Source: an uncultured Planctomycetales bacterium | Lineage (GTDB): Bacteria; Planctomycetota; Phycisphaerae; UBA1845; PWPN01 | Length of the DNA stretch: 64,000 nt | NCBI GenBank assembly: GCA_964548565.1 | Contig: CAZJTF010000001.1 | Span: forward strand, 212 to 64,211 | Direction: 5' to 3' | Shown: one piece after another, positions 30,753 through 62,795 of the stretch | How the letters are laid out: every line of letters begins with the position of its first letter | Position numbering within the stretch: position 1 is the first letter of the stretch | Notes under the pieces: generated by a model | What the model saw: only the letters and a program-made list of their open reading frames with translations | Told to the model about the DNA's origin: nothing | Database searches by the model: none | Position numbers and translations under genes: made by a program

Positions 30753-31709
30753 ATGAAGAAGCTCATTGCGGCGGTTGTCGCCATTTCCATCGCCTGCTGC
30801 ACGGGCATTTCCTGCAGTCCCGGTGCCCTGAATCTGCACGACTGGCAACGAGATCTGCTGTTCAGCGGCGGTGCGCTCGCGGCGGCACTCCTGGCCGACC
30901 AGGCTCAGCACAACGCAGATAACACCACGGACGGTGACGGCGCGGAGCAGGAGATCCCCACCATAGAGGGTCCCCAGGGCCCGCCAGGGCCGGAGGGGCC
31001 ACAGGGTCCACAAGGCCCGCAGGGAGACACCGGCGCGACAGGTGCGACCGGGGCCGCGGGGGCAACCGGCGCCACCGGTGAGACTGGTCCTCAGGGACCG
31101 GCAGGCCCGGCCGGCCCCCAGTATTTCGACCTGTTCATTGACGACTTCTTCGCGGCCGAAGGCAACGGGATGGTTCCGCTGCCCATCGATATTCCCGGCA
31201 CGACAGGCTTTGTCGAGATCGCCGAACCCGCACTGGGCCAGCCGGACATCACCTCCGGCGAGGCCCGCGTGCTGGCGTTCCGGTTCTCCGTTCCGCAGAG
31301 CTATACGACCGGCAACCCCGTGACGATGCGGCTGTCGCTCTACCGCAGCGGTGCCGCGCCGGCGGGCTGCTTCAGCTTCCGGCTGGACGCGCGTCGCCTC
31401 CGCGCCGGCTCGGACATCGAGGTGTACGGCGAACCGCGGTGGGTACTGTCGACACTCGACCCGGCGGCGATCAGCGGCACCGGCCACGTGTTCTGGCTGA
31501 TCGATCTGCCAGTCAACTCGGCCGACGGGCTGAACTTCCCGAACGATTTGGTCGCCGGTCAGATGCTGGCATTCGAACTGGGCTCCGATCTGAACGACAA
31601 CGGAGTGTATACGCTCCTGAGCGTTGAAATCTTCGAGTCGGGAACGCCCGCGCCCACGAGCGGAGGCACGATTTCGAGCAACCCGCCGACGTGCGGCGGC
31701 CCCGCGTAA
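30753..31709 (+). CDS. collagen-like triple-helix-repeat lipoprotein
   Basis: Lipoprotein-type signal [16 protein letters not shown]. 17 uninterrupted G-X-Y triplets, then a ~195-aa non-repetitive C-terminal domain. Confidence 0.75.
30969..31121 (+). repeat. G-X-Y collagen-like repeat tract (17 triplets)
   Basis: [51 protein letters not shown]. Confidence 0.85.
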
Positions 31710-31789
31710 TTTCGGCCCGGGGGAGAGAAACCGGGCGCAACCCCAGCCCGGCCAGACTCCGGGCTGGTCACATAGAGGGAGTACGAACC

Positions 31790-32635
31790 GTGAGACGCGC
31801 CTCTGCCATTCACCAACTGGTTTGTGCGTTCGGCGCCGTCTGCGTCATGTCCTCGGGCCCCGCCATGGCGACCCTCATCGGGGTGGACTGGGACGACGGC
31901 CAGCTCTACCAGGTCTCCACTGTCGACGGATCGATGACCAGCCTGGGGAATCTCGGCATCCCCGCCATGTCCGACCTGACCATGGCCCCCGACGGCACGG
32001 TCTACGGCCTCACCTGCACGACCATCAACGCCGCCGCCGGCCTGTACCGGATTGATCTCGCGACAGCGCAGGCGACGCGCCTCTTCGACATCGACTCCTT
32101 CCTCTATGAAGGCGGTCTCGCGGTCGATACCGGCGGCACGTTTGCGTACGGCTCCAACTTCGGCAAGGTTTCGCAGGCCTCCCTGTTCCGGATCGATCTC
32201 GGGACGGGTGTCACGCAGGCCATGCCGCCCCTGACCGGCTCGCACGACATCAATGGGCTCGTCGTCCGCAGCGACGGGATGTTGATCGCTCTCGACCGCG
32301 TGCAGTCGGGGCTCATTCTCATTGACCCGGCCACCAGCACCTGGTCGATGCTCGCGCCGATCGCCGATCCGGACGGCCTGGGCTCCGTCGGTGCCGTGAC
32401 GATCAAGGACGGCGTGGGCTATGCCGTGACGGCCGCTCTTGGCGCTCCCGTTCCCGGCTCGAGCAAACTGTACAGCTTCGACCCGTTCACCGGGGGGGCG
32501 GCCATGGTCGGAGCGCTGTCCCCCGCGTTTGACGCCGGCGCTGCTGGAATCGGCGGACTGGTCGTCCCCGAACCCGCCACCGCGATCTTCCTCGTCGGCA
32601 GCCTGCTCCTCCTCGCGCACCGGCGACGTCGCTGA
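31790..32635 (+). CDS. PEP-CTERM-anchored secreted protein (repetitive LY.ID / beta-propeller-like body)
   Basis: GTG at 31790 after GAGGGAG. Signal peptide. C-terminus VVPEPATAIFLVGSLLLLAHRRRR (32561..32632) has the PEP motif, a TM segment and an Arg cluster. Confidence 0.75.
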   Translation: MRRASAIHQLVCAFGAVCVMSSGPAMATLIGVDWDDGQLYQVSTVDGSMTSLGNLGIPAMSDLTMAPDGTVYGLTCTTINAAAGLYRIDLATAQATRLFDIDSFLYEGGLAVDTGGTFAYGSNFGKVSQASLFRIDLGTGVTQAMPPLTGSHDINGLVVRSDGMLIALDRVQSGLILIDPATSTWSMLAPIADPDGLGSVGAVTIKDGVGYAVTAALGAPVPGSSKLYSFDPFTGGAAMVGALSPAFDAGAAGIGGLVVPEPATAIFLVGSLLLLAHRRRR

Positions 32636-48476: not shown

Positions 48477-49307
48477 TCATCTCGTATCCCGGCGGCGCAT
48501 GCCGAGCAGGCCCGCCACGCCGAGCAGCGCCAGCGTCGCCGGCTCCGGGACGGCCACCGACGCCCAGTCGCTGCCGATCCGGATCTCGTCGATCTCGGCG
48601 TACGAATTGCTTGCCCCCACGTTCACGCGCAGCTGGGTCAGCACATCGCTGCGCGCACCACTGGTGGTCAGGCTCCAGGCAGCCGGTTCCGAGGCGGGCA
48701 CCGTATCGTTCGGGCCGTACACCTTCAGGAACAGCTGGTCCGATCCGGCCGCGGAGGAGACGAGCTTCGCGACCAGGAAGTATACGGTGTCCGCGCCGAT
48801 CGGCGCCGCGCCGTTGTTGGTATCCACCGCGTTGAGGCCAACGTAGAACACGTCGGCGGCGCTCACGCCGAAGCGAAAGCCGATTGTGCCGCCGGTGGTC
48901 CGGAACTGGAACTGCACGTCCGAGCCGGCCGTCGCGGCGCCGTCCGCCCCCCGGCGAACCAGGGTGCTGGCGTACAGGACGCCGTCCTCGGCCAGGCTGA
49001 CATTCTGGGCCAGATTTCGGACCGCCGCCCGGTCCACCGTGGCGCCGTCGCTCGGCGGGATGCGGATCAGCCGCGAGCCGACGGGCGCAAACGGGAACGC
49101 AGCCGAATCGAGGCTGACCCCGTCGTTGGTCAGCCGCGGATCACCCGTCGTGTTCACCCACGGGCCGCCCCAGCCGATCCCGCCGTTCTGGTCCGCGATG
49201 GCCGTGCCCGTGTAGTCGAACCCGTCGTAATCCAGCAGGGCGGCTTGCGCCGCTCCCGCGGCCGCAAGGCACAACACCCCGCACACAAGAGTGCACGTCA
49301 TTTTCAT
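48477..49307 (-). CDS. PEP-CTERM protein consisting of one free copy of the GIGWGG module
   Basis: ATG at 49307 after GGAGAAG. Signal peptide. LLDYDGFDYTGTAIADQNGGIGWGGPW ... YAEIDEIRIGSDWASV. The tail VAVPEPATLALLGVAGLLGMRRRDTR is at 48480..48557. Confidence 0.75.
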   Translation of the reverse strand: MKMTCTLVCGVLCLAAAGAAQAALLDYDGFDYTGTAIADQNGGIGWGGPWVNTTGDPRLTNDGVSLDSAAFPFAPVGSRLIRIPPSDGATVDRAAVRNLAQNVSLAEDGVLYASTLVRRGADGAATAGSDVQFQFRTTGGTIGFRFGVSAADVFYVGLNAVDTNNGAAPIGADTVYFLVAKLVSSAAGSDQLFLKVYGPNDTVPASEPAAWSLTTSGARSDVLTQLRVNVGASNSYAEIDEIRIGSDWASVAVPEPATLALLGVAGLLGMRRRDTR

Positions 49308-49417
49308 AGCTTCTCCTTCCGCTCCGAAAAGCACTCAGCCGATCTCGTTGCGTCAATTGCTCCGAAAAGGCGTCCCGCCGTCTCCGGACCTCACGTCCTC
49401 CCCGTGACTGCTCCACC

Positions 49418-52048
49418 TCACTGCGGGCAGCCTGGAGTCGCCGTCCACACGATGCCGGGCCCGGTCGCGCACAGTTTGAACGCGCCAAAATCGGCCACGT
49501 CGACATCCTCGTCGCCATCCCGGTCAAAACACTTGCATTCGTTCGGAATGGCCGGCGTCTCCGAGAAACACCGCTGGAACGCCCCGAAGTCGTCCATGTC
49601 GACGTCGTCGTCATTGTCGTCATCCGCGAACGGCACATTGCACCACATGCCCAGGCACGGGTCGAAGCCGACTCCCGCCGTCATGAACTCCGTCGGGGCG
49701 ATCACGTGGTCGCTGATCACGATCTTGTCGAGCAGGCCGTAGAACCCGCGCGTACCGTTGCCGGCCGTCCGATCGTTGCCGATCGCGATGGGCGCGCTGC
49801 CCGGCCCTATCAGGTTCGGCGCCAGCACCTCGCCTTCCAGTGTCCCGTTCAGGTAAAAGCGGATGTCCGTTCCGTCGTACACCATCGCGAAGTGGTACCA
49901 CGTGTTCGGCTGCACCGCCGTCGTGCCGCGGACGACGGTCAGCGTCGACGTATCCGCCTCCGCCCAGACGATCGCCAGCACGTTATTCGTCGGCACGGCC
50001 TCCGTGTTGCCGGTCAGCCCGATCGCCAGCCGCGATTGCCCTTCGGAAGCCGACCGCATCATGCTCACGAGGCGGTCGCCGATGGGCGCGGTGCTGTCAA
50101 CTACGGTCGAGGAGTGATTGAAATAACCCTGGACGGTCAGTGCGTTCGCCAGGTTCCCCGCGTTGCTTGGCAACGTTGTGTTGATCGCCGTGTTCTGCAG
50201 GTCGGGCATGGAAACCGCGAAACTCTGGGCGAGTGCGCCGGGATCGATCAGCGCCGGGATCGCCGGAATCCCCGTCTGGCCGTACTGCACGTACAGGCTG
50301 GCCACGACGCCGGCCGGCGTGCCGTCCGGCGGCCCCGCGGAGTTGTCGATGCAGCCCGGCGTCTCCGCCGGCTGGCCTGACGTGACTGCCTGCCCGTCGT
50401 TCGTCTCGAATCGCGACCGCCAGAGCAGGCCTGCTCCGGGCGCGCCGCCCTTGACCGCGAGTTCATCGACCGTCAGGGCACGATCCCACAGGCGGATTTC
50501 GTCCATCACCCCGTAGAAGCCGCGGTCGTTGGTCGCACCGCTGGTCCGGTTGTTGCCGATCCCGATCTTGGCCGTCCCGGGCGTCACGATGCCCGGAGTG
50601 TTCGCCGTGCCTTCAAGCGCACCGTTCAGGTACCACGTCAGCGTCGTTCCGTCATGGATGGCGGCAAAGTGGTACCAGGTGTTCGCCGCAAGCGGTGTGC
50701 TGCCGACTTCCAGGTGATTGACGAGCGTCGGGTCGACGGCCGGCGGCACCGGCGGAATCGACTCCACCCAGAACGTCGAGAGGACGTTGCGAAGCTCGCC
50801 CGGGTCGCCGCGCGGTGCGTTGGGGTCCGTCACCGCCGCGTACGTCGACCCGATGCGGATCTCGTCGATGTCGGCCTTGTTATTGTTCGCTCCAACGATC
50901 AGGCGGAGGTGAGAAATCACCGAGTTGCTCGCCGTCTGATTCGTCAGCATCCACGTCTCCGGCTCCGTGACCGGCACCGGGTCGCCTGACGCATAGAAGT
51001 TCATGAAAAACTCATCGTTCGTGGAGGTATGTGCGACGATCTTGCCGACGACCAGGTATGTCGTACCAGCGGTAACGGTCCCCCCGATGTTCGTCGACGC
51101 ATTCAGGAAAAACGCATCCGGCACCGTGGCGCTTCCGCTGGTGATGCCGAACCGCGCGACCAGCGTCGTGTTTCCCGGCGTGAAGGCGATCTCCAGGTTC
51201 TCCGCGCTGTTCGCCGAGGTCGAACCCTTGCGCAGGAGTCCGCTCACGTACAGCACCTTGCCCTCCTCCGACAGGTTCAGCGGAATGCTGAGCGGACGTA
51301 CCCCTTCAATGGTGCCCGTCGCGCCGGCATTCGGGCCGCTCAGGCGCGAGCCCACCGACGTGAACAGAGGCGAGGTCAGGCTCACCGAGTCGTTGCTGAG
51401 GAATGCAAAGTCGCCGTCTGCGTCGTCCCACGCGCCGCCCCAGCCGATCCCGCCTGACTGCCCGTGAATTGCGGTACCGGTGTAGTCGAACCCCTCGTAG
51501 TCAAACAGCCCCTCCACGACACCCACTCGCACCGCCTGCAGACCCACCGCCAGACGCGATTGGCCGTCATCCGCGGACCGCTTCTGGCTGACCAGACGCT
51601 GCCCCACGAACGTGCCGCCTACCGGGGTCGCTGTCGGCACGTAGAAGTAGCCTTCAAACGTGAGCGCGCTGGCCAGGTTGCCGGCGTCGCTCCGCAAGTT
51701 GCTGTTGATCCCGGTGCGCCGATCGTCGGGGGAGGAGATCCCGAAGGATCCCGCGGCATTGCCCGGATCGATCAGGCCGGGAATGCCCGGCAACGCCACC
51801 CCATACTGCACGTACACCAGCGGTGCGAGGCTCGCGATGCTGCCGGTCGCCTGCCCCTCGGGCCCGACCAGGTTTTCCACCGGCCCTGCGACCTGCTCGT
51901 GCGTGACGGCCACACCATTCTCCGTCTCGAAAGGCGAGCACCAGACCGGCTCTGCCTGCAGAACGCCGGCCGGCACCAGGATTGCCACGGCAATCGCGCC
52001 CGCGGCCAGCGTGGTGCCAAGAATCTGCGCAACACGGGTTGACGTCAT
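49418..52048 (-). CDS. 876-aa secreted double-LamG protein (the first LamG split by the nested GIGWGG module) + dockerin-like tail
   Basis: AGGAGG lies 6 nt upstream of the ATG. Signal peptide. WYHFAAIHDGTTLTWYLNGAL, FYGVMDEIRLWD, WYHFAMVYDGTDIRFYLNGTL and FYGLLDKIVISD. The nested module is at 50825..51517. The tail at 49421..49645 is FADDDNDDDVDMDDFGAFQRC...CKCFDRDGDEDVDVADFGAFKLC...C. Confidence 0.75.
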   Translation of the reverse strand: MTSTRVAQILGTTLAAGAIAVAILVPAGVLQAEPVWCSPFETENGVAVTHEQVAGPVENLVGPEGQATGSIASLAPLVYVQYGVALPGIPGLIDPGNAAGSFGISSPDDRRTGINSNLRSDAGNLASALTFEGYFYVPTATPVGGTFVGQRLVSQKRSADDGQSRLAVGLQAVRVGVVEGLFDYEGFDYTGTAIHGQSGGIGWGGAWDDADGDFAFLSNDSVSLTSPLFTSVGSRLSGPNAGATGTIEGVRPLSIPLNLSEEGKVLYVSGLLRKGSTSANSAENLEIAFTPGNTTLVARFGITSGSATVPDAFFLNASTNIGGTVTAGTTYLVVGKIVAHTSTNDEFFMNFYASGDPVPVTEPETWMLTNQTASNSVISHLRLIVGANNNKADIDEIRIGSTYAAVTDPNAPRGDPGELRNVLSTFWVESIPPVPPAVDPTLVNHLEVGSTPLAANTWYHFAAIHDGTTLTWYLNGALEGTANTPGIVTPGTAKIGIGNNRTSGATNDRGFYGVMDEIRLWDRALTVDELAVKGGAPGAGLLWRSRFETNDGQAVTSGQPAETPGCIDNSAGPPDGTPAGVVASLYVQYGQTGIPAIPALIDPGALAQSFAVSMPDLQNTAINTTLPSNAGNLANALTVQGYFNHSSTVVDSTAPIGDRLVSMMRSASEGQSRLAIGLTGNTEAVPTNNVLAIVWAEADTSTLTVVRGTTAVQPNTWYHFAMVYDGTDIRFYLNGTLEGEVLAPNLIGPGSAPIAIGNDRTAGNGTRGFYGLLDKIVISDHVIAPTEFMTAGVGFDPCLGMWCNVPFADDDNDDDVDMDDFGAFQRCFSETPAIPNECKCFDRDGDEDVDVADFGAFKLCATGPGIVWTATPGCPQ

Positions 52049-53380: not shown

Positions 53381-56300
53381 TCAATTGAGGCAGTTGGTAT
53401 CGATGTCCCGGTTCGCCCCTGAGAGGCAGTCGAGCAGCATCTCCACGTCCGCCTGGTCGACGAGGGGGTCGAGGTTGAAATTCACCGGCTCACAGCCGGG
53501 CAGCACCTCGATGTTCCCGTTCGGCGTCAGGCAGATCTGGACATATCCGAAGTCCGTCTGGTCCACATCGCCATCCTTGTCGACGTCCGTCGGAATCGCA
53601 AACGCCGAGCGGCTGGCCAGCGCGTAAACGTTGCCGTCGAATGCCGTCAGGTACATCACGTTGCCGATGATGCACGGTGCCGAGAGCAGGGGGGTTCCGA
53701 ACCGCATCGACCAGACTTCGGCTCCTGTATCGAGGTTGAGGGCGTACAATCGCCCGTCGCCGCAGGGCACGTAAGCGATGCGATCCGCGATCGTGGGGCT
53801 TCCGGCCAGCGCCGCGAACGTGTTGTTGTACGGCGCCATCTTCAGGGCCGACGTCGCGAGCTGCTTTTCCCAGATCTGCGCGCCCGTATCGAGCCGGAAG
53901 CCGCGAATGTACCCCGTGCCGCCCGCGACCACAATGCCGTTCGCCACCGCCGGGGTCGACGCGGAACGCCCGCCACCCAGTGGGCGCGTCCACCTTGAGG
54001 AGCCGTTAGCCAGCACAGCGCAGTGCAGCGTGCCGCTGTAGTCGGTGAAGAGCACGTCATTGCCGACAATCACCGGGCTGCCGTGCAGCCCCTGGACCGA
54101 GTACTGCCAGATCGTCGCCCCCGTCGCAGCGTTTACTGCCCGCACGTTGTTGGCCCAGTTGGCCGGCACCACCACGATGTTGCCCGTCCCCGACGGGCAG
54201 GCGTTTGAACTGATCCAGTCCGCCCCGTAACTCTGTGGCCAGTTCTTCGAGCCGGTGGCGGGGTTGAACGAGGCGAAATACGCGTACGTTCCCGCGAACA
54301 GCGCGCCGTTGAGCAGAAGCGGCCCGCTGTACTGGAACCGCTGGTACGGCGACCCCAGCTCAGAACTCCAGATCGGCGCGCCCGTCGTCCGGTTCAGCGC
54401 GTGCACGACGCCGCCGTGCGAGCAGGCGTACACGCGATCCTGGTCCAGCGTCACGCTGTGCGAGACTGCCGCCGGCGTGGGCGTGAACCACACGCGGGAC
54501 CCATCCTCCGCCTTGAGCGCGAGCACGCCGTTCTTCTCGAGGTCCCCGCGATCCTTCACGCCGACATAGACCGTCTTATCCTTCACGACGGGGGAGCCGA
54601 AATCGATCGTCCCTTCCGTATCGGCCGCCCAGACCGGCCCCAGGGGAGGCTCCAGTGCACCTGCGGCCACCCCGCCCCGCGCCGGCCCGCCGCCGAACTG
54701 CGTCCACTCGCCGTCTGGAGCCGTCCGCGGCTTCCGCAGCCCGAGCACGGTGAACGTCGTCTGCGCGGTGGATGTTTCGCCGCGGTCATTCGTCGCCGTC
54801 ACGTGCAGATCATATGCACCGCGCGGAATCTGCGCCGCCGGCAGCATCGTCCGCCAACTCCACTGCCCCTGCCGCGTGAGCGAGCCCTCCGCGACCACTT
54901 CGCCGGAATGCTCGACGCGATAACCCACCGACTCCACGTCCGCCGACGTTTCGTACGCGTTAACGATCACCAGCACGTCGTCATTCGGCACGAGCACGGA
55001 GTTCGACGGCGTCACGATCTGCAGCTGCTTGCCGTCGGCGATCCATCGCATCCGGCTCGTCGACCGGTCCGTCGTGACGCTGATCACCTTGAACCCGGCC
55101 GGCGAGCAGTCGATCCCACCGAAGAGGAAGGTCGCGGTGTTGTAGGACGTCATGCTGCCGACAGACACCGTGTGCTGCGAGTGCCAGTGGCCGCTGAACA
55201 CCGCTTCCGCTGACCACGACTGGAATTGCGTGTGCTCTTCCTGAGACGGCGAGTAGTGCTGGAAGATGAACAGCCGCTTGCTGCCGCGAAGAAGCTGCAG
55301 ATCCTTGGCGACCCACGCCTGCTGCTGCGTCGTCTTCTGGATCGCGTTCAGGATCAGGAAGTGGCAGTCCGCGTAGTCGAACGAGTAGTAGTCGGGCCCC
55401 AGGTACTTGCGGTAATTCGAGGCGCCGCCGCTGTTCGCGTCGTGGTTGCCGAACACGCTGAATACAGGCACCGCCGAGCTGTTCACGCCCGCCACGTACC
55501 CGTCGAAGTGCGACAGGTTGCTGCCCGAGTCCGCCAGATCTCCCGTGGCCAGGATGAATTTCGGCGGGCTCTTCAATGCCGCCACCTCGCCCAGGGCCGA
55601 CGTGAGAAGCGCGGTCGTCCCGTTCCCGCCGATGTGAATGTCGGAGATCTGCGCGAAGTCGAACGGTCGCGACTCCTCGGCCGACGCCAGTGCGAAGCTG
55701 AAATCCGCCGGCGCCGAGCTTCCGCTGATTCGCTTGTACCACGTGTTTGTCTTTGCGTACCCGCTCGGAAGCGAGATGTAGATCAGCCGGGCGTCTCCTG
55801 CCGCGTTGGGCAGCGTGTACGTGCCGTCGCCCGCCGTCACCGCGAGGTCTATCGTGTCCGACACACCTACGCCGGCGATGCCCGCCTCACCCTCGTCTTT
55901 CACGCCGTCGCCGTCAGCATCATTGAACACGGTGCCGGTGATCGGTCCGCTCCACCCGCCTCCCCGGTAGATCACGATCGGCGGAACCGTCCCCGCCTTC
56001 ACGTCTTCGGCATACTTGAGCATGTTGCGCATCAGTCGCGGGGCCTGCAGCTTCGCCTGGGTGTTGCCGATGTTCCGCGCCTTGTCCGGCGCCAGTGACA
56101 GGAACAGCGCCCGCCCGGTCCCCCAGCCTGCCTCGACGATGCTGGCCAGCGACACATCCGTGGCGCCGTCGCCCGCGAGCACGCCCACCTGCTCGAACGT
56201 GACGATGCTCTCCCAGGATGTCGACCACGTGGCGCTCCCCGTGTATCGCCACCCCTGGAGATTCGAATCAGAGATGACGTTCGGCGTGCTGAACAGCTGG

Positions 56301-56791
56301 TGCCCGGTCTGCACGCGATAGACCAGGTCGAAATCCGGGTCCCCGCGGACCACGCGCGCCGGCAACGGGACCCAGCTCTCCTGCGCGACGGTCTGGTCAG
56401 CCTGCGTCAGCATGATGACCGTCCCGCCGTTGTTCACGAACTGGTTGAGCGTCGTCGCGGCGCTCGCCAGGGCCGATTTAATCGTGCTTTGCTGCGTGCA
56501 GAAGCTGCCGACGATAAACGTGTCGAAACCGGCGAGATTGATCGCCTGACCGCTCTGCACCTGGGCAGTCTTGTCGGTATAGCTCTGCCCGATGTCCGTG
56601 AGCAGCTGGCCGAGCCCCTTCGTGTTCGAGAACTGGTCCTGGTAGTCCAGAATCGCCACGGTAACCGCCCCGCGCGCCGACAGGGACACCGCCAGCGCGA
56701 CCAGGATCGCGAGTGCGCCCGCGCTTCTCCCTGCCCGCCCTGGTCCCGCTGTGTTGACCTGCTCCGCGGAACGAACGACCGATCCCGACAT
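53381..56791 (-). CDS. 1136-aa secreted multidomain protein: GATase1/ThuA-like + SdrD-B-like + metallophosphoesterase + Ig-like + PQQ-type beta-propeller + dockerin-like tail
   Basis: Start at MSGSVV (56791). Signal-like segment ALAILVALAVSLSARG. GTVFNDADGDGVKDEGEAGIAGVGV is the SdrD-B-type motif. The calcineurin-like phosphoesterase motifs are ISDIHIG, ATGDLADSG, VFGNHD and FSGHWH. Repeated V(Y/F)xGxxxGx(L/V)xA beta-propeller blades (BamB/PQQ-like). The tail at 53384..53602 is DVDKDGDVDQTDFGYVQIC...C..C. Confidence 0.7.
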   Translation of the reverse strand: MSGSVVRSAEQVNTAGPGRAGRSAGALAILVALAVSLSARGAVTVAILDYQDQFSNTKGLGQLLTDIGQSYTDKTAQVQSGQAINLAGFDTFIVGSFCTQQSTIKSALASAATTLNQFVNNGGTVIMLTQADQTVAQESWVPLPARVVRGDPDFDLVYRVQTGHQLFSTPNVISDSNLQGWRYTGSATWSTSWESIVTFEQVGVLAGDGATDVSLASIVEAGWGTGRALFLSLAPDKARNIGNTQAKLQAPRLMRNMLKYAEDVKAGTVPPIVIYRGGGWSGPITGTVFNDADGDGVKDEGEAGIAGVGVSDTIDLAVTAGDGTYTLPNAAGDARLIYISLPSGYAKTNTWYKRISGSSAPADFSFALASAEESRPFDFAQISDIHIGGNGTTALLTSALGEVAALKSPPKFILATGDLADSGSNLSHFDGYVAGVNSSAVPVFSVFGNHDANSGGASNYRKYLGPDYYSFDYADCHFLILNAIQKTTQQQAWVAKDLQLLRGSKRLFIFQHYSPSQEEHTQFQSWSAEAVFSGHWHSQHTVSVGSMTSYNTATFLFGGIDCSPAGFKVISVTTDRSTSRMRWIADGKQLQIVTPSNSVLVPNDDVLVIVNAYETSADVESVGYRVEHSGEVVAEGSLTRQGQWSWRTMLPAAQIPRGAYDLHVTATNDRGETSTAQTTFTVLGLRKPRTAPDGEWTQFGGGPARGGVAAGALEPPLGPVWAADTEGTIDFGSPVVKDKTVYVGVKDRGDLEKNGVLALKAEDGSRVWFTPTPAAVSHSVTLDQDRVYACSHGGVVHALNRTTGAPIWSSELGSPYQRFQYSGPLLLNGALFAGTYAYFASFNPATGSKNWPQSYGADWISSNACPSGTGNIVVVPANWANNVRAVNAATGATIWQYSVQGLHGSPVIVGNDVLFTDYSGTLHCAVLANGSSRWTRPLGGGRSASTPAVANGIVVAGGTGYIRGFRLDTGAQIWEKQLATSALKMAPYNNTFAALAGSPTIADRIAYVPCGDGRLYALNLDTGAEVWSMRFGTPLLSAPCIIGNVMYLTAFDGNVYALASRSAFAIPTDVDKDGDVDQTDFGYVQICLTPNGNIEVLPGCEPVNFNLDPLVDQADVEMLLDCLSGANRDIDTNCLN

Positions 56792-56940
56792 AGGACAGCT
56801 CGACAAATAAGGGCGCTGCCGGGTCAGACAGAAACTTTCCAGCCGACCCGGCAGCGCCGGCCCTGAAAACTGTCTACCGGGAAGCGGGCTGCTCTCCCCA
56901 TCGCCCGCTCCCCCGGTAGAAGCGTGACTCCGCCTGCCCC

Positions 56941-58515
56941 TCAGCGCGACAGGCTGCGGCGACGCCTCGCCGCGACGATCCCGCAGGCGGCCATCATCAT
57001 CAGGCACAGCCCGGGTTCCGGAATCTCGACGACCAGCGGCGTGCCCGGAATCCCGCCGTACCACGTGTAGTAAGCGCCATTGTCGGCGCCGCCGTTGCCC
57101 CAGCTCGCCAGCCCGACGCTGCCCGCCAGGATCGGGTCGTTCAGGTCGGTGATGACCGGGTAGTTGATCGGCAGGCCCCCGACGGGGGTCACCTGCACGA
57201 ACAGCTGGTTTCCGATGGCCTTGACGCTCAGGTCGAACGGAACTTCCGTCCCCGCCCCGCCCGAATCATCCATGAACACGAACAGAGGATTCGACTGGTT
57301 GTCGCGGAACAGCTCGGACCAGACGCCGTCCTTGAACTTCTGCACCGACAGCCCCTGCGGCGCCCGCTCCCACATGTTCGTCGCCGTGATCGTCTGCCGG
57401 GCGAAGTTGACCCGGTAGAATGCGCTGTCGTTCTCCTGCACGCGCACGAGCACACCCACCCCGTCGTCGTCCAGGTTGGCGACCCGCACCTTCATTTCGT
57501 AGTTCGACATCGCGCTGCTGCCGGGCTCGTTGACAACGACGGCGGGGCTGATGAAGTCCACGTTCGGCGTGGCCTGCGTCGCCCATTCGTAACCGTTGCT
57601 GTCCTCACCGATCCGGCCCTTCGGGAACTGCAGGCGGAAATTGCCCAGGTCGTCTCCCTGGCCGCCCGTGTTGCCGGCGGAATTCCGCATCGTCACCGCG
57701 CGCCAGCTCACCGGCGACGTGAACGATTCCGAAAACAGCGTGTTCGCGTTGTTCGCGTCGGTGACCGTGACCTGGCTGGCCTCGACACCCCAGAGCGCCC
57801 GGAGAGCCGAGGGCGAATTGGCGGTGCCGCCATTGCGCTCATACCAGGAGTGAACGCCGATCTTGCCGGCCTTCAGGTCGGCATCCGTGCCGCTGTGGAT
57901 CAGCGTGTTGTCCACGTAGACCGACCAGGCCGTCCCATTCACCTCGACTTTGACGTTCATGGGGAAGTAATTTGCCGCGTCATTGTCGGTGATCTTCGGC
58001 ACGAACGTTGTGCTGGGGGCGGCGATCTGCGTGATGGCGTTGTTGACCACCTTCTGGACCGACACGCCCCTGCCGAAACCGAGGTTGCTGCTCTGGTTGC
58101 GCAGCCCCACGCGGAAGTAGTTCCCCGTGTCCTGCCAGCCGAACACGACCCCGAATCCGTCGTCGTCGTTCGTCGTCAGGGTCGTCGTGAAGTTGTACGC
58201 GTCCGGGGTCGTGAAATTGTCGTTGATCATGATGTACGGGGTGTACCGGCCGTCCGTCGAGGAGGTGCTGTCACCCCACCGTCCGCCGCCCGATTCCTGC
58301 AGCGCGCCGGTCCGCAGGTGGATGCCCCAGTTCGGCTTCTCAACCGTCGCCGGCGCCAGGGTCGGCGACTGGTTGGGGTTGGTCGGGTTCGGATCGACCC
58401 ATCCGTTGTAGCTGTTGATAAAGGGGTCGCTGATCAGCGGGTCCCCCGGGGCGCCGAGCGCCGGCAGCGCCGCCGCCGCGAGCGACAACAAGGCAAGAAT
58501 TCGCACGATCGTCAT
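56941..58515 (-). CDS. 524-aa PEP-CTERM protein built from two DDDG-motif beta-sandwich modules
   Basis: AGGAGGG lies 7 nt upstream of the ATG. Signal peptide MTIVRILALLSLAAAALPALGAP. NDDDGFGVVFGWQDTGNYFRVGL and LDDDGVGVLVRVQENDSAFYRVNF. The tail VEIPEPGLCLMMMAACGIVAARRRRSLSR is at 56944..57030. Confidence 0.75.
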   Translation of the reverse strand: MTIVRILALLSLAAAALPALGAPGDPLISDPFINSYNGWVDPNPTNPNQSPTLAPATVEKPNWGIHLRTGALQESGGGRWGDSTSSTDGRYTPYIMINDNFTTPDAYNFTTTLTTNDDDGFGVVFGWQDTGNYFRVGLRNQSSNLGFGRGVSVQKVVNNAITQIAAPSTTFVPKITDNDAANYFPMNVKVEVNGTAWSVYVDNTLIHSGTDADLKAGKIGVHSWYERNGGTANSPSALRALWGVEASQVTVTDANNANTLFSESFTSPVSWRAVTMRNSAGNTGGQGDDLGNFRLQFPKGRIGEDSNGYEWATQATPNVDFISPAVVVNEPGSSAMSNYEMKVRVANLDDDGVGVLVRVQENDSAFYRVNFARQTITATNMWERAPQGLSVQKFKDGVWSELFRDNQSNPLFVFMDDSGGAGTEVPFDLSVKAIGNQLFVQVTPVGGLPINYPVITDLNDPILAGSVGLASWGNGGADNGAYYTWYGGIPGTPLVVEIPEPGLCLMMMAACGIVAARRRRSLSR

Positions 58516-58566
58516 CTTCTGCCCTCCTGAGGCTGCTGCCTCGGTTGAATGTCGAACACCTCCAGC

Positions 58567-61500
58567 CTACTCATTGGCACAGTTCGCGTCCAGAGGCATA
58601 TCGCCTGAATAGCATGCCTGAAAGATCGCAAAGTCATCCATATCGACGTCCGTGTCGCCGTCGCTGTCCGCCCGGTTGCACCGTACGTCCGGGTTGGTCC
58701 GCGGAATGGTGGGCCCGCTCGCGCAGGTCTTCCAGAGAATAAAGTCGAGATCGTTCACCCGGTTGTCGTCGTTCAGATCCGGGATGGGCCGTCCGGCAAC
58801 ACCGACGACACGCACATTGTCGAAAACGCCGGCCGTATCGATGTACTTCGTCCAGTCGAAGCCGATCCCCAGGTAGTTGTTGATCTCGTCGACGCGGCCG
58901 TCGGCGTCTCCCATCCCCCACACTGTCGCGCCGATCTTGCCCTGCAGCAGGGGGTTCGACGGATCGGAGAACGACCACATGTACTGTGTGACGCCGTCCG
59001 CCGTCGCGTTCGGCCCGCCGTAATCGCACTCGGAGTCGCTGTCCAGACAGAGCTCGGTCACCTTGATGTTGAAGTCAGCCCCGGTGGCCTGCAGTTCCAG
59101 GCGCCATCTCTGCCCCGGGCGATACACGAAGCCGGCGTTGTAAAACATCTCCTGGTAGGTGCCCGCCAGCCGCTTCTGGACCGACACGCCCTGCGGCGGG
59201 CCGCCGTTCGCGTTGTTCGCCTGGCTCATGAACATCAGGCGGTAAAAGTTCTCCTCGTTCTGGTAGCGGAACAGCACGCCGATCCCGTCGTTGTCCAGCG
59301 CCTGTATGTCCACCGTGTACGTGTAGTCGATCCAGTGGCTCTCGCCGGCCACCGCCCGCGGACCGTCGAAATTGGTCGTGCCCCGCGTGTTGTTGCCCTC
59401 TTCCAGGAAGGCTGTCCCGACAATGTAGCGGTTGTCGCGCGCGCCCAGCGCCTTCAGATCCTCGCGGATGCCGATCCCCGAGGTCTTCGCTCCCGTCCAT
59501 GCCTGGCTGTACGACGCCGACTCGCCCAGTACCGAGTCCACATCGGACATCGTCTCCTGCGTGGCATCCACCCAGCCTTTCGGATCGGGCGCACCCATCC
59601 CGTCGGTGAACACAGGCTGGCTCTGGCCCGCCAGCGTCAGCTTGATCTCGCGGAACTCGTTGACGTTGTTGCCCCAGGTGTGCAGGCCCACCGTGCCGCG
59701 CGTGAGCGGCGCGGGATCCACCACCGTCGCCTGGTAATAGTTGTCCTGTTCGTATCCGGTATCGAGCGTGTCGATCTGGATCCGGAACGTCCCGCCGGTG
59801 CAGATCACCCGCGCCCGCCAGATCTTGAACCCCTCCTCGATACCTCCGCCCGCCGCCCAGCCGGCCGAGTTGTACTTGAAGCCCGCCAGCGGCGTGCTAT
59901 CGTTGTCCCCGGGCGCGGTCGAATCGATATCGCTGAACAGCTCCGAGTACACGCCGTTCACGACCCGCTGAACGCTGATGCCCGACGGCGGCGCGCCCGT
60001 GCTGACCTGCGCCTCGTCCTGGAACGTCAACCGGTAGAAGTTCTTCTCGTCCTGGAACCGGAACAAGAGACCGATGCCGTCGTCATCGTGCGCCTCGATC
60101 ACGGCCTCGTATGTGTAGTCCGTCCAGTTGGTCGCCCCCGGATCCATGCGGACCAGCCGCGGCCCCTGGAACTCCCGCCGCTGACCCGTACCGTCCGCCA
60201 TGTTGGCATTGCTCGACATCTCCAGGGCGGAGTTCTGGAATTTGCGGATCCAGCTTCCGGTCAGGCTGGTTCGGATGGGCACGCCCCGCGCGATGTTCGT
60301 TGCGACTCCGCCCACGACCTTCTGGGCCGAGGCGCCCTGGGCAAAGCCGTAGCTCCCGGTCGCCTCGTTTCGGAAGCCGACCCGGAAGTAGTTGTTGTCA
60401 TCCACGTGCCCGAATACGAGCCCCAGCCCGTCATTGTCGTAACTTCGCAGGCGGGCACGGAGCGTGTAGTCCGCCCCGGCGTTGAACCCGTCCTTCACGA
60501 GCACGTACGGAACGTACTTCCCGTCACCATTCGTGCCGCCGTCGAGCGAGCCGCCGTTCCTCTGGCGACCGTCCGTGGGATCGAGAAGGTTTGCCGTCGA
60601 CAGCAGGCGGATGCCCCATGCGGCGGGCCGCCCCGCGATCTGCGGAACCGCCGGGTCGTACGTGCTTCGCCAGTTGTTGTAACCCTTCGGCAACACGTCC
60701 CCGACCAGCGTGATCGGCGTCGCGTCCGTGGTCACAATGAACGGCGTGCTGACCCCCCCGTAGCTGTAGAAGAACGTCGCGTCATTACCCCACGCGTGCA
60801 GTCCGGCCGTGCCGGCGGGCACCGGGTCGCTGGCGTCCACGATGTCCGGATACGTGATGGTCTGAGGTGACGGGCCGGCCGGATCGTTCACAACCGTCAG
60901 TTGGATTGTCGCCGTCCCGCCGCTGCCCGTGATCCGCGCCCGCACATCGAACGGGATGTTTGAGGCGTACGTGAACAGCGGGCTACCCTGGTTGTCCCGG
61001 AAGATTTCGCTCCAGACACCGTTGCGGCACTTCTGGACCGAGACGCCCTGGGGGGCCCGCTCCCACGCGTTGGTCGCGGTAATCGCCTGACGGACAAACG
61101 TGATCCGGTAGAAGTTCGTATCATCCTGCGCCCGGAGTAACACGCCCATGCCGTCGTCGTCCGTGGCCAGCAACCGGACCTTCGCTTCGTAATCGGCCCA
61201 GGCAGAACTGCCGGCCGCGTCGTACGCGACAGCAATGCCCATGAAGTCCACGTTGGGGGCGTTGTTGGTGGCCCACGTAAAGTAATTGCTGTCGTCCGTG
61301 TAGGCGCCCCGGTGGAAATCCCACCGCAGGTCCCCCAGGCTTCCCAACTCGGTCACCGCCGCGCCCATCGCGTTGGTCGTGAGCATCCGCCGCCATTTGC
61401 CTGCGATGATCGCCGGAAGCTCCCACGTCTCCTGCAGCAGGGTCGCCCCGGCGCCGTCCTCCACAGTTAAGTACTCGCACTCCGTCCCCGAAATGGGGCT

Positions 61501-61833
61501 TCCACCGCGCTGAGCCCAGGACATCACGCCCACCGACCCCGCATGCAGATCCGGATCCGTTCCCGACAGCGTGGCGCTGCCGTTCACGGTAATGGTGAAC
61601 GTCTGCCCCACGACCCGCACCTCCACGTCGAAGGGCGTCCCGTCGATCGGGGGCGAAAAGTCGTGCGGAACAGACCACGCCGGCAGCGCCGCGTGCGTCA
61701 TGGCGTTCTGCCACGGGGCCCGGTTGAAATCGTCCTCGAAGAGCAGGCTCTGCCCGGCCGTGGTCGAGACCACCCCCAACAGCAGCGCGCAGAACAACCC
61801 TTTCCCCATGAAGGCTCCGTGCCGTTGTGACAT
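58567..61833 (-). CDS. 1088-aa secreted protein with four or more DDDG-motif beta-sandwich modules + dockerin-like tail
   Basis: ATG at 61833 lies 7 nt after AGGAG. Signal peptide. Motif copies: TDDDGMGVLLRAQDDTNFYRITF, YDNDGLGLVFGHVDDNNYFRVGF, HDDDGIGLLFRFQDEKNFYRLTF, LDNDGIGVLFRYQNEENFYRLMF. The tail at 58570..58785 is DLNDDNRVNDLDFILWKTC...C..DSDGDTDVDMDDFAIFQAC...C. Confidence 0.75.
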   Translation of the reverse strand: MSQRHGAFMGKGLFCALLLGVVSTTAGQSLLFEDDFNRAPWQNAMTHAALPAWSVPHDFSPPIDGTPFDVEVRVVGQTFTITVNGSATLSGTDPDLHAGSVGVMSWAQRGGSPISGTECEYLTVEDGAGATLLQETWELPAIIAGKWRRMLTTNAMGAAVTELGSLGDLRWDFHRGAYTDDSNYFTWATNNAPNVDFMGIAVAYDAAGSSAWADYEAKVRLLATDDDGMGVLLRAQDDTNFYRITFVRQAITATNAWERAPQGVSVQKCRNGVWSEIFRDNQGSPLFTYASNIPFDVRARITGSGGTATIQLTVVNDPAGPSPQTITYPDIVDASDPVPAGTAGLHAWGNDATFFYSYGGVSTPFIVTTDATPITLVGDVLPKGYNNWRSTYDPAVPQIAGRPAAWGIRLLSTANLLDPTDGRQRNGGSLDGGTNGDGKYVPYVLVKDGFNAGADYTLRARLRSYDNDGLGLVFGHVDDNNYFRVGFRNEATGSYGFAQGASAQKVVGGVATNIARGVPIRTSLTGSWIRKFQNSALEMSSNANMADGTGQRREFQGPRLVRMDPGATNWTDYTYEAVIEAHDDDGIGLLFRFQDEKNFYRLTFQDEAQVSTGAPPSGISVQRVVNGVYSELFSDIDSTAPGDNDSTPLAGFKYNSAGWAAGGGIEEGFKIWRARVICTGGTFRIQIDTLDTGYEQDNYYQATVVDPAPLTRGTVGLHTWGNNVNEFREIKLTLAGQSQPVFTDGMGAPDPKGWVDATQETMSDVDSVLGESASYSQAWTGAKTSGIGIREDLKALGARDNRYIVGTAFLEEGNNTRGTTNFDGPRAVAGESHWIDYTYTVDIQALDNDGIGVLFRYQNEENFYRLMFMSQANNANGGPPQGVSVQKRLAGTYQEMFYNAGFVYRPGQRWRLELQATGADFNIKVTELCLDSDSECDYGGPNATADGVTQYMWSFSDPSNPLLQGKIGATVWGMGDADGRVDEINNYLGIGFDWTKYIDTAGVFDNVRVVGVAGRPIPDLNDDNRVNDLDFILWKTCASGPTIPRTNPDVRCNRADSDGDTDVDMDDFAIFQACYSGDMPLDANCANE

Positions 61834-61901: not shown

Positions 61902-62795
61902 CTATCGCTTGATGTACTCCTGCGGGACGTGGCTGACCGACATGTCGCTCCGGTCCAGCGTCCTGTATGTGTTCTCGCGGGTGATCCAGCCGGCGTGCAT
62001 GTCGGCAAACAGCATGTTCCAGCCCTTCGGCCCGTGGTTGTCCAGCGGGCTGTCCGGCCAGTTGTTGATGTCGGCGGTCCCGAGGATCTCCGGATCGTCT
62101 CCGTCCAGCACCAGGATGACGTACGCGGCCCTCTTCTGAACGATCCGGGGCCGCTTCAGCGAATCGGGGAAGCCGTTGTTGTCCGTGTCCACGTCGCCCC
62201 GCCCGGTGTACAGCGCGTACGGAAGCCGTGGATTCTGCGTCTCGGCCGATCCCGGTCCGGCATAGTCGTACTTCTGGAATCCGTTCCAGAACTCGTAACT
62301 GTGGCCGTAGTGGCCGTCCGCGCCGCCGTGGTCCCGGCTGTCGGCGTTGTTGTTCAGGTCGGCCGCCTTCATGAGCCGGTTGTTCGTCCCCGGGCAGATC
62401 AGGAGGCCCCAGTCCCGGATGTACCGCCGGCTCGGTGAGCCCTTCGATGCGCCCGGGTTCCCTCCGCCGCCCGGGCGTGGAATGCTCTTCATATCCAGCG
62501 CGAGCGCCACGACCGAGTCCCCGCCGATCGTGTCCTTTCCCCAGCGCCAGGTGGTGAAGTCGAACGGGTGGTTGTACATGAAGTAGTCCTGGTTGTGGTC
62601 CTCCGAATAGAGCGTCATGGCCTGGCCCATGCCGCGGAGGTTGGCCTGGCATCCCACGCGGTAGGCCTGCTCCCGCGCCTGGCGCAGGGATGGCAGCAGG
62701 ATCGAAACAAGCAATGCGATGATGGCCACGACAACGAGGACTTCAATCAGGGTGAACCCTGACGTTGACCGGCGTCCGACGTCGGCTCTTCTCAT
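61902..62795 (-). CDS. DUF1559-type prepilin-like protein (variant C-terminal motif)
   Basis: [40 protein letters not shown]. The C-terminus is [17 protein letters not shown], with the DG of the HX9DG motif replaced by AD. Confidence 0.8.

Follow-up and report, generated by a model that had tools for sequence, protein, structure and literature searches.

Two neighbouring genes of an uncultured Planctomycetales bacterium (assembly GCA_964548565.1, contig CAZJTF010000001.1) encode predicted secreted proteins built from related modules that stand in different orders, which raises the question of how one set of modules came to be connected in two ways. The genes, here named A and B, lie adjacent on the same strand with a spacer of 51 bp, within a stretch of 64,000 nucleotides that was analysed as a whole (the window). 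The shorter protein, A, ends in a PEP-CTERM-type tail, and the longer one, B, in a dockerin-like tail. Here we report that the front part of B, comprising its first ~490 mature residues, is a gene-level circular permutation of the whole mature A. The overall reading, which we hold to be rather probable, is that A and B are ancient secreted paralogues made of modules related to the thrombospondin C-terminal domain (TSP_C) of the concanavalin A (ConA)-like fold, that the front of B is A permuted by duplication, that the module split by the permutation reassembles, and that both are binding proteins.

A preliminary description of the two genes had counted six copies of a module of ~190 amino acids (aa), four in B and two in A, all marked by one acidic signature. 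A six-frame search recovered both open reading frames (ORFs) and all six signatures of the form D[DN]DGxG[VL][VLI], at positions 61161, 60438, 60087 and 59295 in B and 58167 and 57471 in A, and no further copy anywhere in the 64-kb window; the second copy in A is one residue longer than the regular expression proposed at first allows. The number of full modules and their size had to be revised. B carries three complete modules and one split module, with a signature on the N-terminal part of the split one, and the five complete modules of the window measure ~215-270 aa and, when aligned, share 16 invariant columns, among them D-x-D-G-x-G, Q, R, G-x-S-V-Q, and W.

Both peptide pairs quoted as signs of kinship between A and B were found verbatim (66.7% identical over 75 aa and 55.8% identical over 43 aa), and the similarity extends far beyond the short DDDG motif, as the pairwise alignment spans nearly all of mature A. 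In BLASTP, A158-496 matches B42-367 with 41% identity (E=3e-70), which bears out A and part of B as true paralogues, and a second segment pairs A27-165 with B376-515 at 34% identity (E=1e-19). Together the two segments cover the whole mature A in swapped order, meeting at about residue 160 of A, inside module 1. The YFRVG-type copy in B consists of only the N-terminal two-thirds of the module (aa 369-520, piece N1), and the missing third is found in the 72 residues opening mature B (aa 57-128, piece C1). When A was aligned locally to residues 28-520 of B written twice, with the native order and shuffled sequences as controls, A27-496 aligned in one piece to B from residue 376 through the wrap to residue 367 (37% identity, 522 columns), the permuted order scoring 782, the native order 614, and the shuffles 46+-7. 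Because the breakpoint lies inside module 1 of A and the alignment is continuous across the junction, the permutation is circular and not a swap of whole modules. The resulting layouts are signal peptide, N1, C1, M2, and PEP-CTERM in A, and signal peptide, a short conserved segment, C1, M1 (of the M2 type), N1, M3, M4, and dockerin in B (Table 1).

Circular permutation is well known, the ConA-like fold included. Concanavalin A is likewise related to favin and the legume lectins by circular permutation within the ConA-like fold superfamily. However, in concanavalin A the permutation takes place post-translationally, whereas in A and B the gene itself is permuted, and here the permuted unit spans two domains, so that one domain becomes discontinuous and the other is inserted into it. 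The locus presents a clean natural gene-level circular permutation across two domains, with both connectivities side by side; the permutation alone reveals neither a new mechanism nor a function.

The start of gene B is most likely the ATG at 61833, which is preceded by a GGAG-type ribosome-binding site, with a longer ORF opening at TTG 61866. Third-position GC content is ~0.86 for the A and B ORFs, like that of other real genes of this window of 66% GC, and the plus-strand ORFs that overlap them are the usual artefacts of high-GC DNA.

Table 1. Features of genes A and B and of the genes beside them, in window positions.
Feature	Position	Strand	Basis and remarks
Pilin-like gene (prepilin-type N-terminal methylation domain), upstream of B	61902..62795	minus	TIGR02532, 27.2 bits (cut-off 16.3)
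Gene B ("giant"), 1088-aa secreted multi-module protein, ATG start	58567..61833	minus	ORF and ribosome-binding site
B predicted signal peptide, aa 1-27, MSQRHGAFMGKGLFCALLLGVVSTTAG/Q	61753..61833	minus	Read from the sequence; model confidence (pLDDT) <50
B conserved N-terminal segment, aa 28-56	61666..61752	minus	Putative leftover copy of the first strand of A module 1 (LLFEDDFNRAPW) and possible second copy of the breakpoint strand
B piece C1, aa 57-128, C-terminal third of split module	61450..61665	minus	BLASTP and piece mapping; homologous to A ~161-257
B module M1, aa 129-368, complete, ATNAWERAP type	60730..61449	minus	Counterpart of A module 2, 43% identity, E=1e-58
B piece N1, aa 369-520, N-terminal two-thirds of split module, YFRVG type	60274..60729	minus	Homologous to A 27-165, 34% identity, E=1e-19
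B module M3, aa 521-735, complete	59629..60273	minus	Own clade in module tree; aligns with other modules
B module M4, aa 736-1005, complete	58819..59628	minus	Module tree and alignment; best TSP_C stretch 845-886 (numbered from the TTG start)
B dockerin-like tail, aa 1006-1088, two calcium-binding F-hand segments and four Cys	58570..58818	minus	Pfam Dockerin_1
Shared dockerin-like tail, B	58570..58806	minus	Alignment; passes Pfam
Shared dockerin-like tail, LamG protein	49421..49651	minus	Alignment; does not pass Pfam
Shared dockerin-like tail, phosphoesterase/propeller protein	53384..53617	minus	Alignment; does not pass Pfam
Gene A, 524-aa two-module PEP-CTERM protein	56941..58515	minus	ORF and ribosome-binding site
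A module 1, aa 25-257, N-part 25-160 and C-part 161-257, contiguous	57745..58443	minus	Piece mapping and module alignment
A module 2, aa 258-497	57025..57744	minus	Piece mapping and module alignment
A PEP-CTERM-type tail, PEPGLCLMMMAACGIVAARRRRSLSR	56944..57024	minus	P-E-P, hydrophobic span and Arg cluster read from the sequence
MetallophosN/Metallophos phosphoesterase with PQQ-type beta-propeller and dockerin-like tail	53381..56791	minus	Pfam

Indirect evidence on the state of the split module comes from AlphaFold2 (AF2) modelling of B1-525 on whole-sequence alignments (A5, A6). Because the A-family rows of the input span only C1-M1, the topology of A was not imported into the model; alignments with added A-family fragments (A3, A4) were discarded, since MAFFT had put either the whole A family or the DDDG core of module 2 on N1. 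The model has a predicted template modelling score (pTM) of 0.82 and a mean predicted local distance difference test (pLDDT) of 85. C1 (aa 61-130) forms five strands at pLDDT 81-98 and N1 (371-520) ten strands at a mean of ~84, M1 reaches ~95, and values below 50 are confined to aa 1-56, a short loop (430-435), and the construct end (519-525). In the complete module M1, ten strands precede the equivalent breakpoint and ~6-7 follow it; therefore, the ten strands of N1 and the five of C1 add up to roughly one module. In a deletion control without N1 (B1-368), C1 dropped from a mean pLDDT of 92 to one of 80, strand 100-105 was lost, and strand 116-126 became shorter, with M1 unchanged (94.9 vs 94.6). 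As the deletion lowers confidence in C1 only, the model points to reassembly: most likely, C1 and N1 would pack back into one sandwich with the module 2-type domain inserted. B would then keep the two-domain binding unit of A with another chain connectivity, extended by two modules. Foldseek matches to legume lectins over 350-400 columns were also considered as a sign that C1 and N1 align as one domain, and were set aside as uninterpretable at a root-mean-square deviation of 15-17 A.

It is unlikely that C1 and N1 are instead independent partial remnants of an atrophied domain, with B working through its three complete modules. Functional partial domains are documented in the literature (PMC4432964), and C1 without N1 still models at a pLDDT of ~80. 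However, the two pieces are as conserved among B orthologues as the complete modules (44-60% identity for C1 and 38-50% for N1, in proteins 38-51% identical overall), and therefore they are not decaying remnants; jointly they supply the strand set of one module, the pTM of 0.82 implies that the two are fixed relative to each other, and the loss of confidence upon deletion of N1 is specific to C1.

What kind of domain is permuted and split was approached by profile and structure comparison, which agree with the ConA/LamG-like beta-sandwich proposed in the preliminary description. The Pfam profile TSP_C (PF05735) scores 39.6 bits on B, above its gathering score of 25.6 (E=6e-10), and 15.4 bits, below threshold, on A alone, whose modules nevertheless share homology with the B modules. 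In the AF2 model all secondary structure is beta, as fits a two-sheet jelly-roll sandwich, and the best Foldseek matches in PDB are the C-terminal domains of COMP, thrombospondin-1 (TSP-1), and TSP-2 (3fby, 2rhp, 1yo8, 1ux6), with E from 4e-7 to 5e-6 and a probability of 1.00, followed at lower rank by legume lectins, galectin, pentraxin, GH131, a GH43 accessory domain, the alginate lyase PA1167 (PL7), and PilC. The modules are kin to the ConA-fold C-terminal domain of thrombospondin at the level of the superfamily only, and they do not fall into any well-studied family whose role is known to be unrelated. In common with the C-terminal domains of thrombospondin and COMP (PDB 1ux6, 1yo8, 3fby) they have the same class of beta-sandwich and, in a weak profile alignment, a block of the form DDD(x)xG...FY...G(L/V)SV(K/Q). 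By contrast, A and B are bacterial, carry tandem copies, one of them split and permuted, and are ~11-15% identical to thrombospondins; a Pfam scan detected neither EGF nor TSP type-3 domains in A or B, which therefore are not thrombospondins proper. A sequence search of a single module against PDB returned chance nanobody and antibody matches only.

That the modules are catalytic, as glycoside hydrolases or lyases of the ConA fold, and not binding domains is unlikely. Foldseek does list GH131, the GH43-associated sandwich, and PA1167, and the locus contains glycan-degrading enzymes. However, the best Pfam and structural matches are to the non-catalytic TSP_C domains, the invariant residues comprise the DxDG site, Gly/Trp/Tyr, and SVQ with no acid pair typical of GH16/GH131, and five to six tandem copies per locus are typical of binding repeats. 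The D-[DN]-D-G motif is invariant in all modules, and in a weak profile match (E=0.35) the segment DDDGiGvlfrvQ..fyR...GvSVQk is paired with DDDYAGFVFGYQ..FYV...GLSVKV of thrombospondin-1. As the DDD motif of thrombospondin coordinates calcium (PMC6526912), we infer by analogy that the modules would bind calcium.

The most likely origin of B is permutation by duplication, in which tandem duplication and fusion are followed by trimming (PMC3320104). Tandem A-type genes would fuse, the core of the N-terminal part of the first copy would be deleted while its signal peptide and first strand were retained, and the C-terminal part of module 1 and the module 2 of the second copy would be lost. This is the same doubled-gene-then-trimming model as in the textbook cases of saposin/swaposin and DNA methyltransferases, except that the N-terminal trimming would be an internal deletion that spares the signal peptide and first strand. 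The N-terminus of B keeps the motif L-x-F-x-D-x-F...W of the first strand of A, in which F36 is the same in 45/45 aligned sequences of the A and B families and W41 varies little or not at all, and the strand at the breakpoint may be present twice, at B42-53 and B508-519, to judge from a weak similarity. A candidate for the duplicated intermediate, or else a frame or assembly error, is P0077, a 1167-aa protein on a 6681-bp metagenomic contig in which two complete A-type units stand in tandem within one ORF; they are linked by a PEP-CTERM-like segment of unit one and a signal-peptide-like segment, and unit two ends in a dockerin and a PEP-CTERM tail. The A-type paralogue pairs P0010/P0051 and P0030/P0055 are each found on equally long contigs, which suggests tandem genes, and a B gene stands next to an A-type gene in the window and in loci L004 and L006. 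Since each connectivity is conserved in its own group of orthologues and a candidate intermediate exists, the route through duplication is directly testable.

Fission and fusion, another accepted way in which circular permutants arise (PMC3320104), would have split module 1 into two genes that were then fused to module 2 in a different order with no tandem intermediate. We consider it quite unlikely for this locus, as stand-alone half-module genes were not found among the homologues, tandem or fused A-type genes do exist (P0077 and the two paralogue pairs), and B keeps redundant end segments of the kind expected from duplication followed by trimming. Very unlikely is the shuffling of whole modules suggested in the preliminary description, where recombination would have reordered two intact modules so that B holds the modules of A in reverse. 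What stands of that proposal is the reversed order of the signature-bearing halves, and relatives with variable numbers of modules, up to 15 matched stretches per protein, do exist; but the break cuts through module 1, the YFRVG unit of B lacks its C-terminal third, which is found at the N-terminus of B colinear with A161-257 and on into module 2, and the alignment to the doubled sequence is unbroken at the junction.

The permutation by duplication that we favour would be an old event. The database contains 66 relatives of A, mostly of 510-530 aa and with the same N1-C1-M2 order, and those with taxonomic names belong to the Phycisphaerae and Pirellulales (e.g., Aeoliella and Lacipirellula); this order is common to all A-type proteins and to Pirellulales proteins of ~1200 aa. 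Relatives of B number only ~10 at the 90% clustering level, even by a profile search with the B-family alignment, which returned no additional B-type proteins. They include P0067, which is identical to B, and the full-length orthologues P0068-P0076 with 38-51% identity, and a B-type protein is also encoded in three species representatives of the genome collection (L006-L008), all Planctomycetota. The order C1-M1-N1-M3-M4 is found in every B-type protein (P0068-P0076 and loci L006-L008), with C-termini that vary between a dockerin in some and a fused calcineurin-like phosphoesterase in others. In a neighbour-joining tree the modules form four clades, corresponding to the module-1 type, M3, M4, and the M2-type, and the M1 copies of the B family branch outside the whole M2 clade of the A family. 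As each protein also has its own orthologues, the duplication behind A and B is ancient, not recent, and the earlier wording of a close paralogue does not hold: overall identity is only 37-41%, compared with 38-56% between either protein and its orthologues in other genomes. It is hardly credible that a recent local duplication, gene conversion, or an assembly artefact explains the similarity, for although A and B are adjacent on one strand with a 51-bp spacer, their best stretch (the first peptide pair) is just 71% identical in DNA and the proteins just 37-41%, each has separate orthologues, the order B-A-phosphoesterase recurs in L004 at 51-62% identity, the module tree contradicts it, and the B architecture is seen in at least six independent assemblies, which excludes the artefact.

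Beyond A and B, a search of 1.84 billion cluster representatives with the module profile gave 1292 matches at E<=0.001, of which 103 reach E<=1e-30, a result that defines a small bacterial family of thrombospondin-C-like modules with a putative calcium site, tied in the Planctomycetota to pilin-like and phosphoesterase genes. The family is thinly present in Rhodothermales, Cyanobacteria, Chloroflexota, and some archaeal metagenome-assembled genomes (MAGs). Eight loci of Verrucomicrobiota MAGs (L009-L016) encode proteins of ~1100-1300 aa with four modules of the family, none of them split, and one representative protein of 3465 aa (P0091) has 15 matched stretches.

The two proteins differ also in their tails, for which a tail swap had been proposed. 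The tail of A has P-E-P, a hydrophobic span, and RRRR, and scores 13.5 bits with TIGR02595, below the cut-off of 16; several A orthologues are annotated as PF07589/PEP-CTERM. In having a signal peptide, a terminal motif, a hydrophobic span, and an Arg cluster, A resembles the proteins sorted by exosortases (TIGR02595, PF07589), from which it differs by its score below the cut-off of the hidden Markov model and by a window with no exosortase among the scanned ORFs. An unrelated 285-aa protein of the window (48477..49334, minus strand) has a clear PEP-CTERM segment with 23.6 bits in TIGR02595 against the cut-off of 16, and therefore an exosortase is probably encoded elsewhere in the genome. The tail of B, scanned alone with Dockerin_1 (PF00404), reaches 24.2 bits and so exceeds the gathering score of 22.9, the value being 18.5 bits when the whole protein is scanned, and its top sequence matches in PDB are type I dockerins (E 0.035-0.17). 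Alignment of the dockerin-like tails of three secreted proteins of the window gives 15 invariant columns, among them four Cys. Such cysteines are atypical of clostridial dockerins. Freshwater planctomycetes of the family Nemodlikiaceae have been suggested to possess a hypothetical "planctosome", a non-cellulosomal complex of cohesins and dockerins (PMC6461901), and the related tails of B and two neighbouring secreted proteins are as expected of parts docked on a common scaffold; differences from type I dockerins and the planctosome are the four invariant Cys, a window with no cohesin, and no demonstrated link to cellulose or peptide degradation. Different sorting and docking tails are indeed attached to A and B; a simple swap does not describe them, since B has two extra modules and another A-type protein, P0030 (619 aa), carries a dockerin between module 2 and its PEP-CTERM tail. 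Because P0030 has both, the tails are combinable and not strictly either/or.

Functionally, A and B would be calcium-dependent proteins of the envelope or the extracellular space that bind a glycan or some other surface polymer, with A routed by PEP-CTERM/exosortase sorting and B held by its dockerin-like tail beside the neighbouring dockerin-tailed enzymes. A pilin-like protein and a metallophosphoesterase would make up a conserved cassette together with them. In 5/5 other genomes examined, the gene directly upstream of the B-type gene is an orthologue of the pilin-like gene (46-69% identity). Downstream of A, the longest ORF of the phosphoesterase/PQQ gene (53381..57064) overlaps the 3' end of A by 124 nucleotides; its true start is probably near 56791, because a signal-peptide-like segment begins at ~aa 92 and the L004 counterpart aligns only from ~96. 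In L004, a phosphoesterase/PQQ orthologue (62% identity) follows the B-A pair. Elsewhere, B-type genes are followed by a second B-type gene fused to Metallophos (L003/L007) or by choice_anch_I and 5'-nucleotidase-C genes (L005). The downstream genes thus vary, yet phosphoesterase-type genes (Metallophos, 5_nucleotid_C, choice_anch_I) recur as fusion partners or downstream neighbours of B-type proteins, as seen for P0072, P0074, P0076, L003 10766..14749, and L005 4438..8114. The lectin-like modules may therefore be functionally connected with the cleavage of phosphoesters, and given that connection the ligand could be a phosphorylated polymer.

A ConA-like module is likewise associated with a pilin in PilC of Streptococcus sanguinis, a modular type IV pilin with a lectin module (PDB 7oa7/7oa8); in contrast, the pilin-like and lectin-module proteins here are the products of separate genes, and a physical association between them is speculation. 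A speculative extension, which we regard as unlikely, is that the cassette of pilin-like protein, B, the PEP-CTERM lectin A, and the dockerin-tailed metallophosphoesterase/propeller protein would constitute an undescribed planctomycete surface apparatus, in which a pilin-like fibre or a dockerin-binding scaffold displays calcium-dependent lectins that capture phosphorylated or glycosylated polymer for the phosphoesterase, with the permutation letting an A-type unit enter a longer docked chain. The capture of polymers at the cell surface is a poorly understood part of Planctomycetota biology. Literature searches returned nothing on dockerins together with PEP-CTERM in Planctomycetes or on PF05735 in bacteria, and among publications on DUF1559 or thrombospondin in Planctomycetes no title pointed to the module family.

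Several observations weigh against the overall reading of A and B as permuted, reassembled, calcium-binding paralogues. The profile of the five modules has thrombospondin-1 as its top match among PDB sequences, and this match is weak (E=0.35). Enzymes occur within the ConA-like fold as well (GH131, GH43 accessory domains, PL7), so that a catalytic role is possible. Reassembly of C1 and N1 is argued from pTM, pLDDT, strand counts, and one deletion control, in which the drop of pLDDT was moderate, and the conserved segment B28-56 is unplaced in both AF2 constructs (pLDDT <50). Ten residues of this segment are invariant within the B family (D34, F36, R38, W41, N43, A44, T46, L50, P51, and W53), and it may dock on M3 or M4, which lie outside the modelled constructs, or have another role. 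P0077 is the sole candidate tandem fusion and lies on a short metagenomic contig, where a sequencing or frame error is possible. Finally, among the ~35 ORFs of the window that were scanned there is no exosortase or cohesin, and no ligand was found in the window.

Genes for secreted proteins of glycan processing lie around the locus: the surrounding 30 kb encode a GH78 rhamnosidase, two LamG+BNR_4 proteins, a ceramidase-like LamG protein, and another PEP-CTERM protein. A LamG protein of 876 aa (49418..52048, minus strand) consists of two similar halves, each opening with FET(E/N).G.AVT...YVQYG and containing a Laminin_G_3 domain, followed by a dockerin-like tail, and looks like the product of an internal duplication. 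Further away on the plus strand, a collagen triple-helix-repeat protein (30753..31709) is followed by a DUF4394/DUF6923 protein (31691..32635), which makes an unusual pair.

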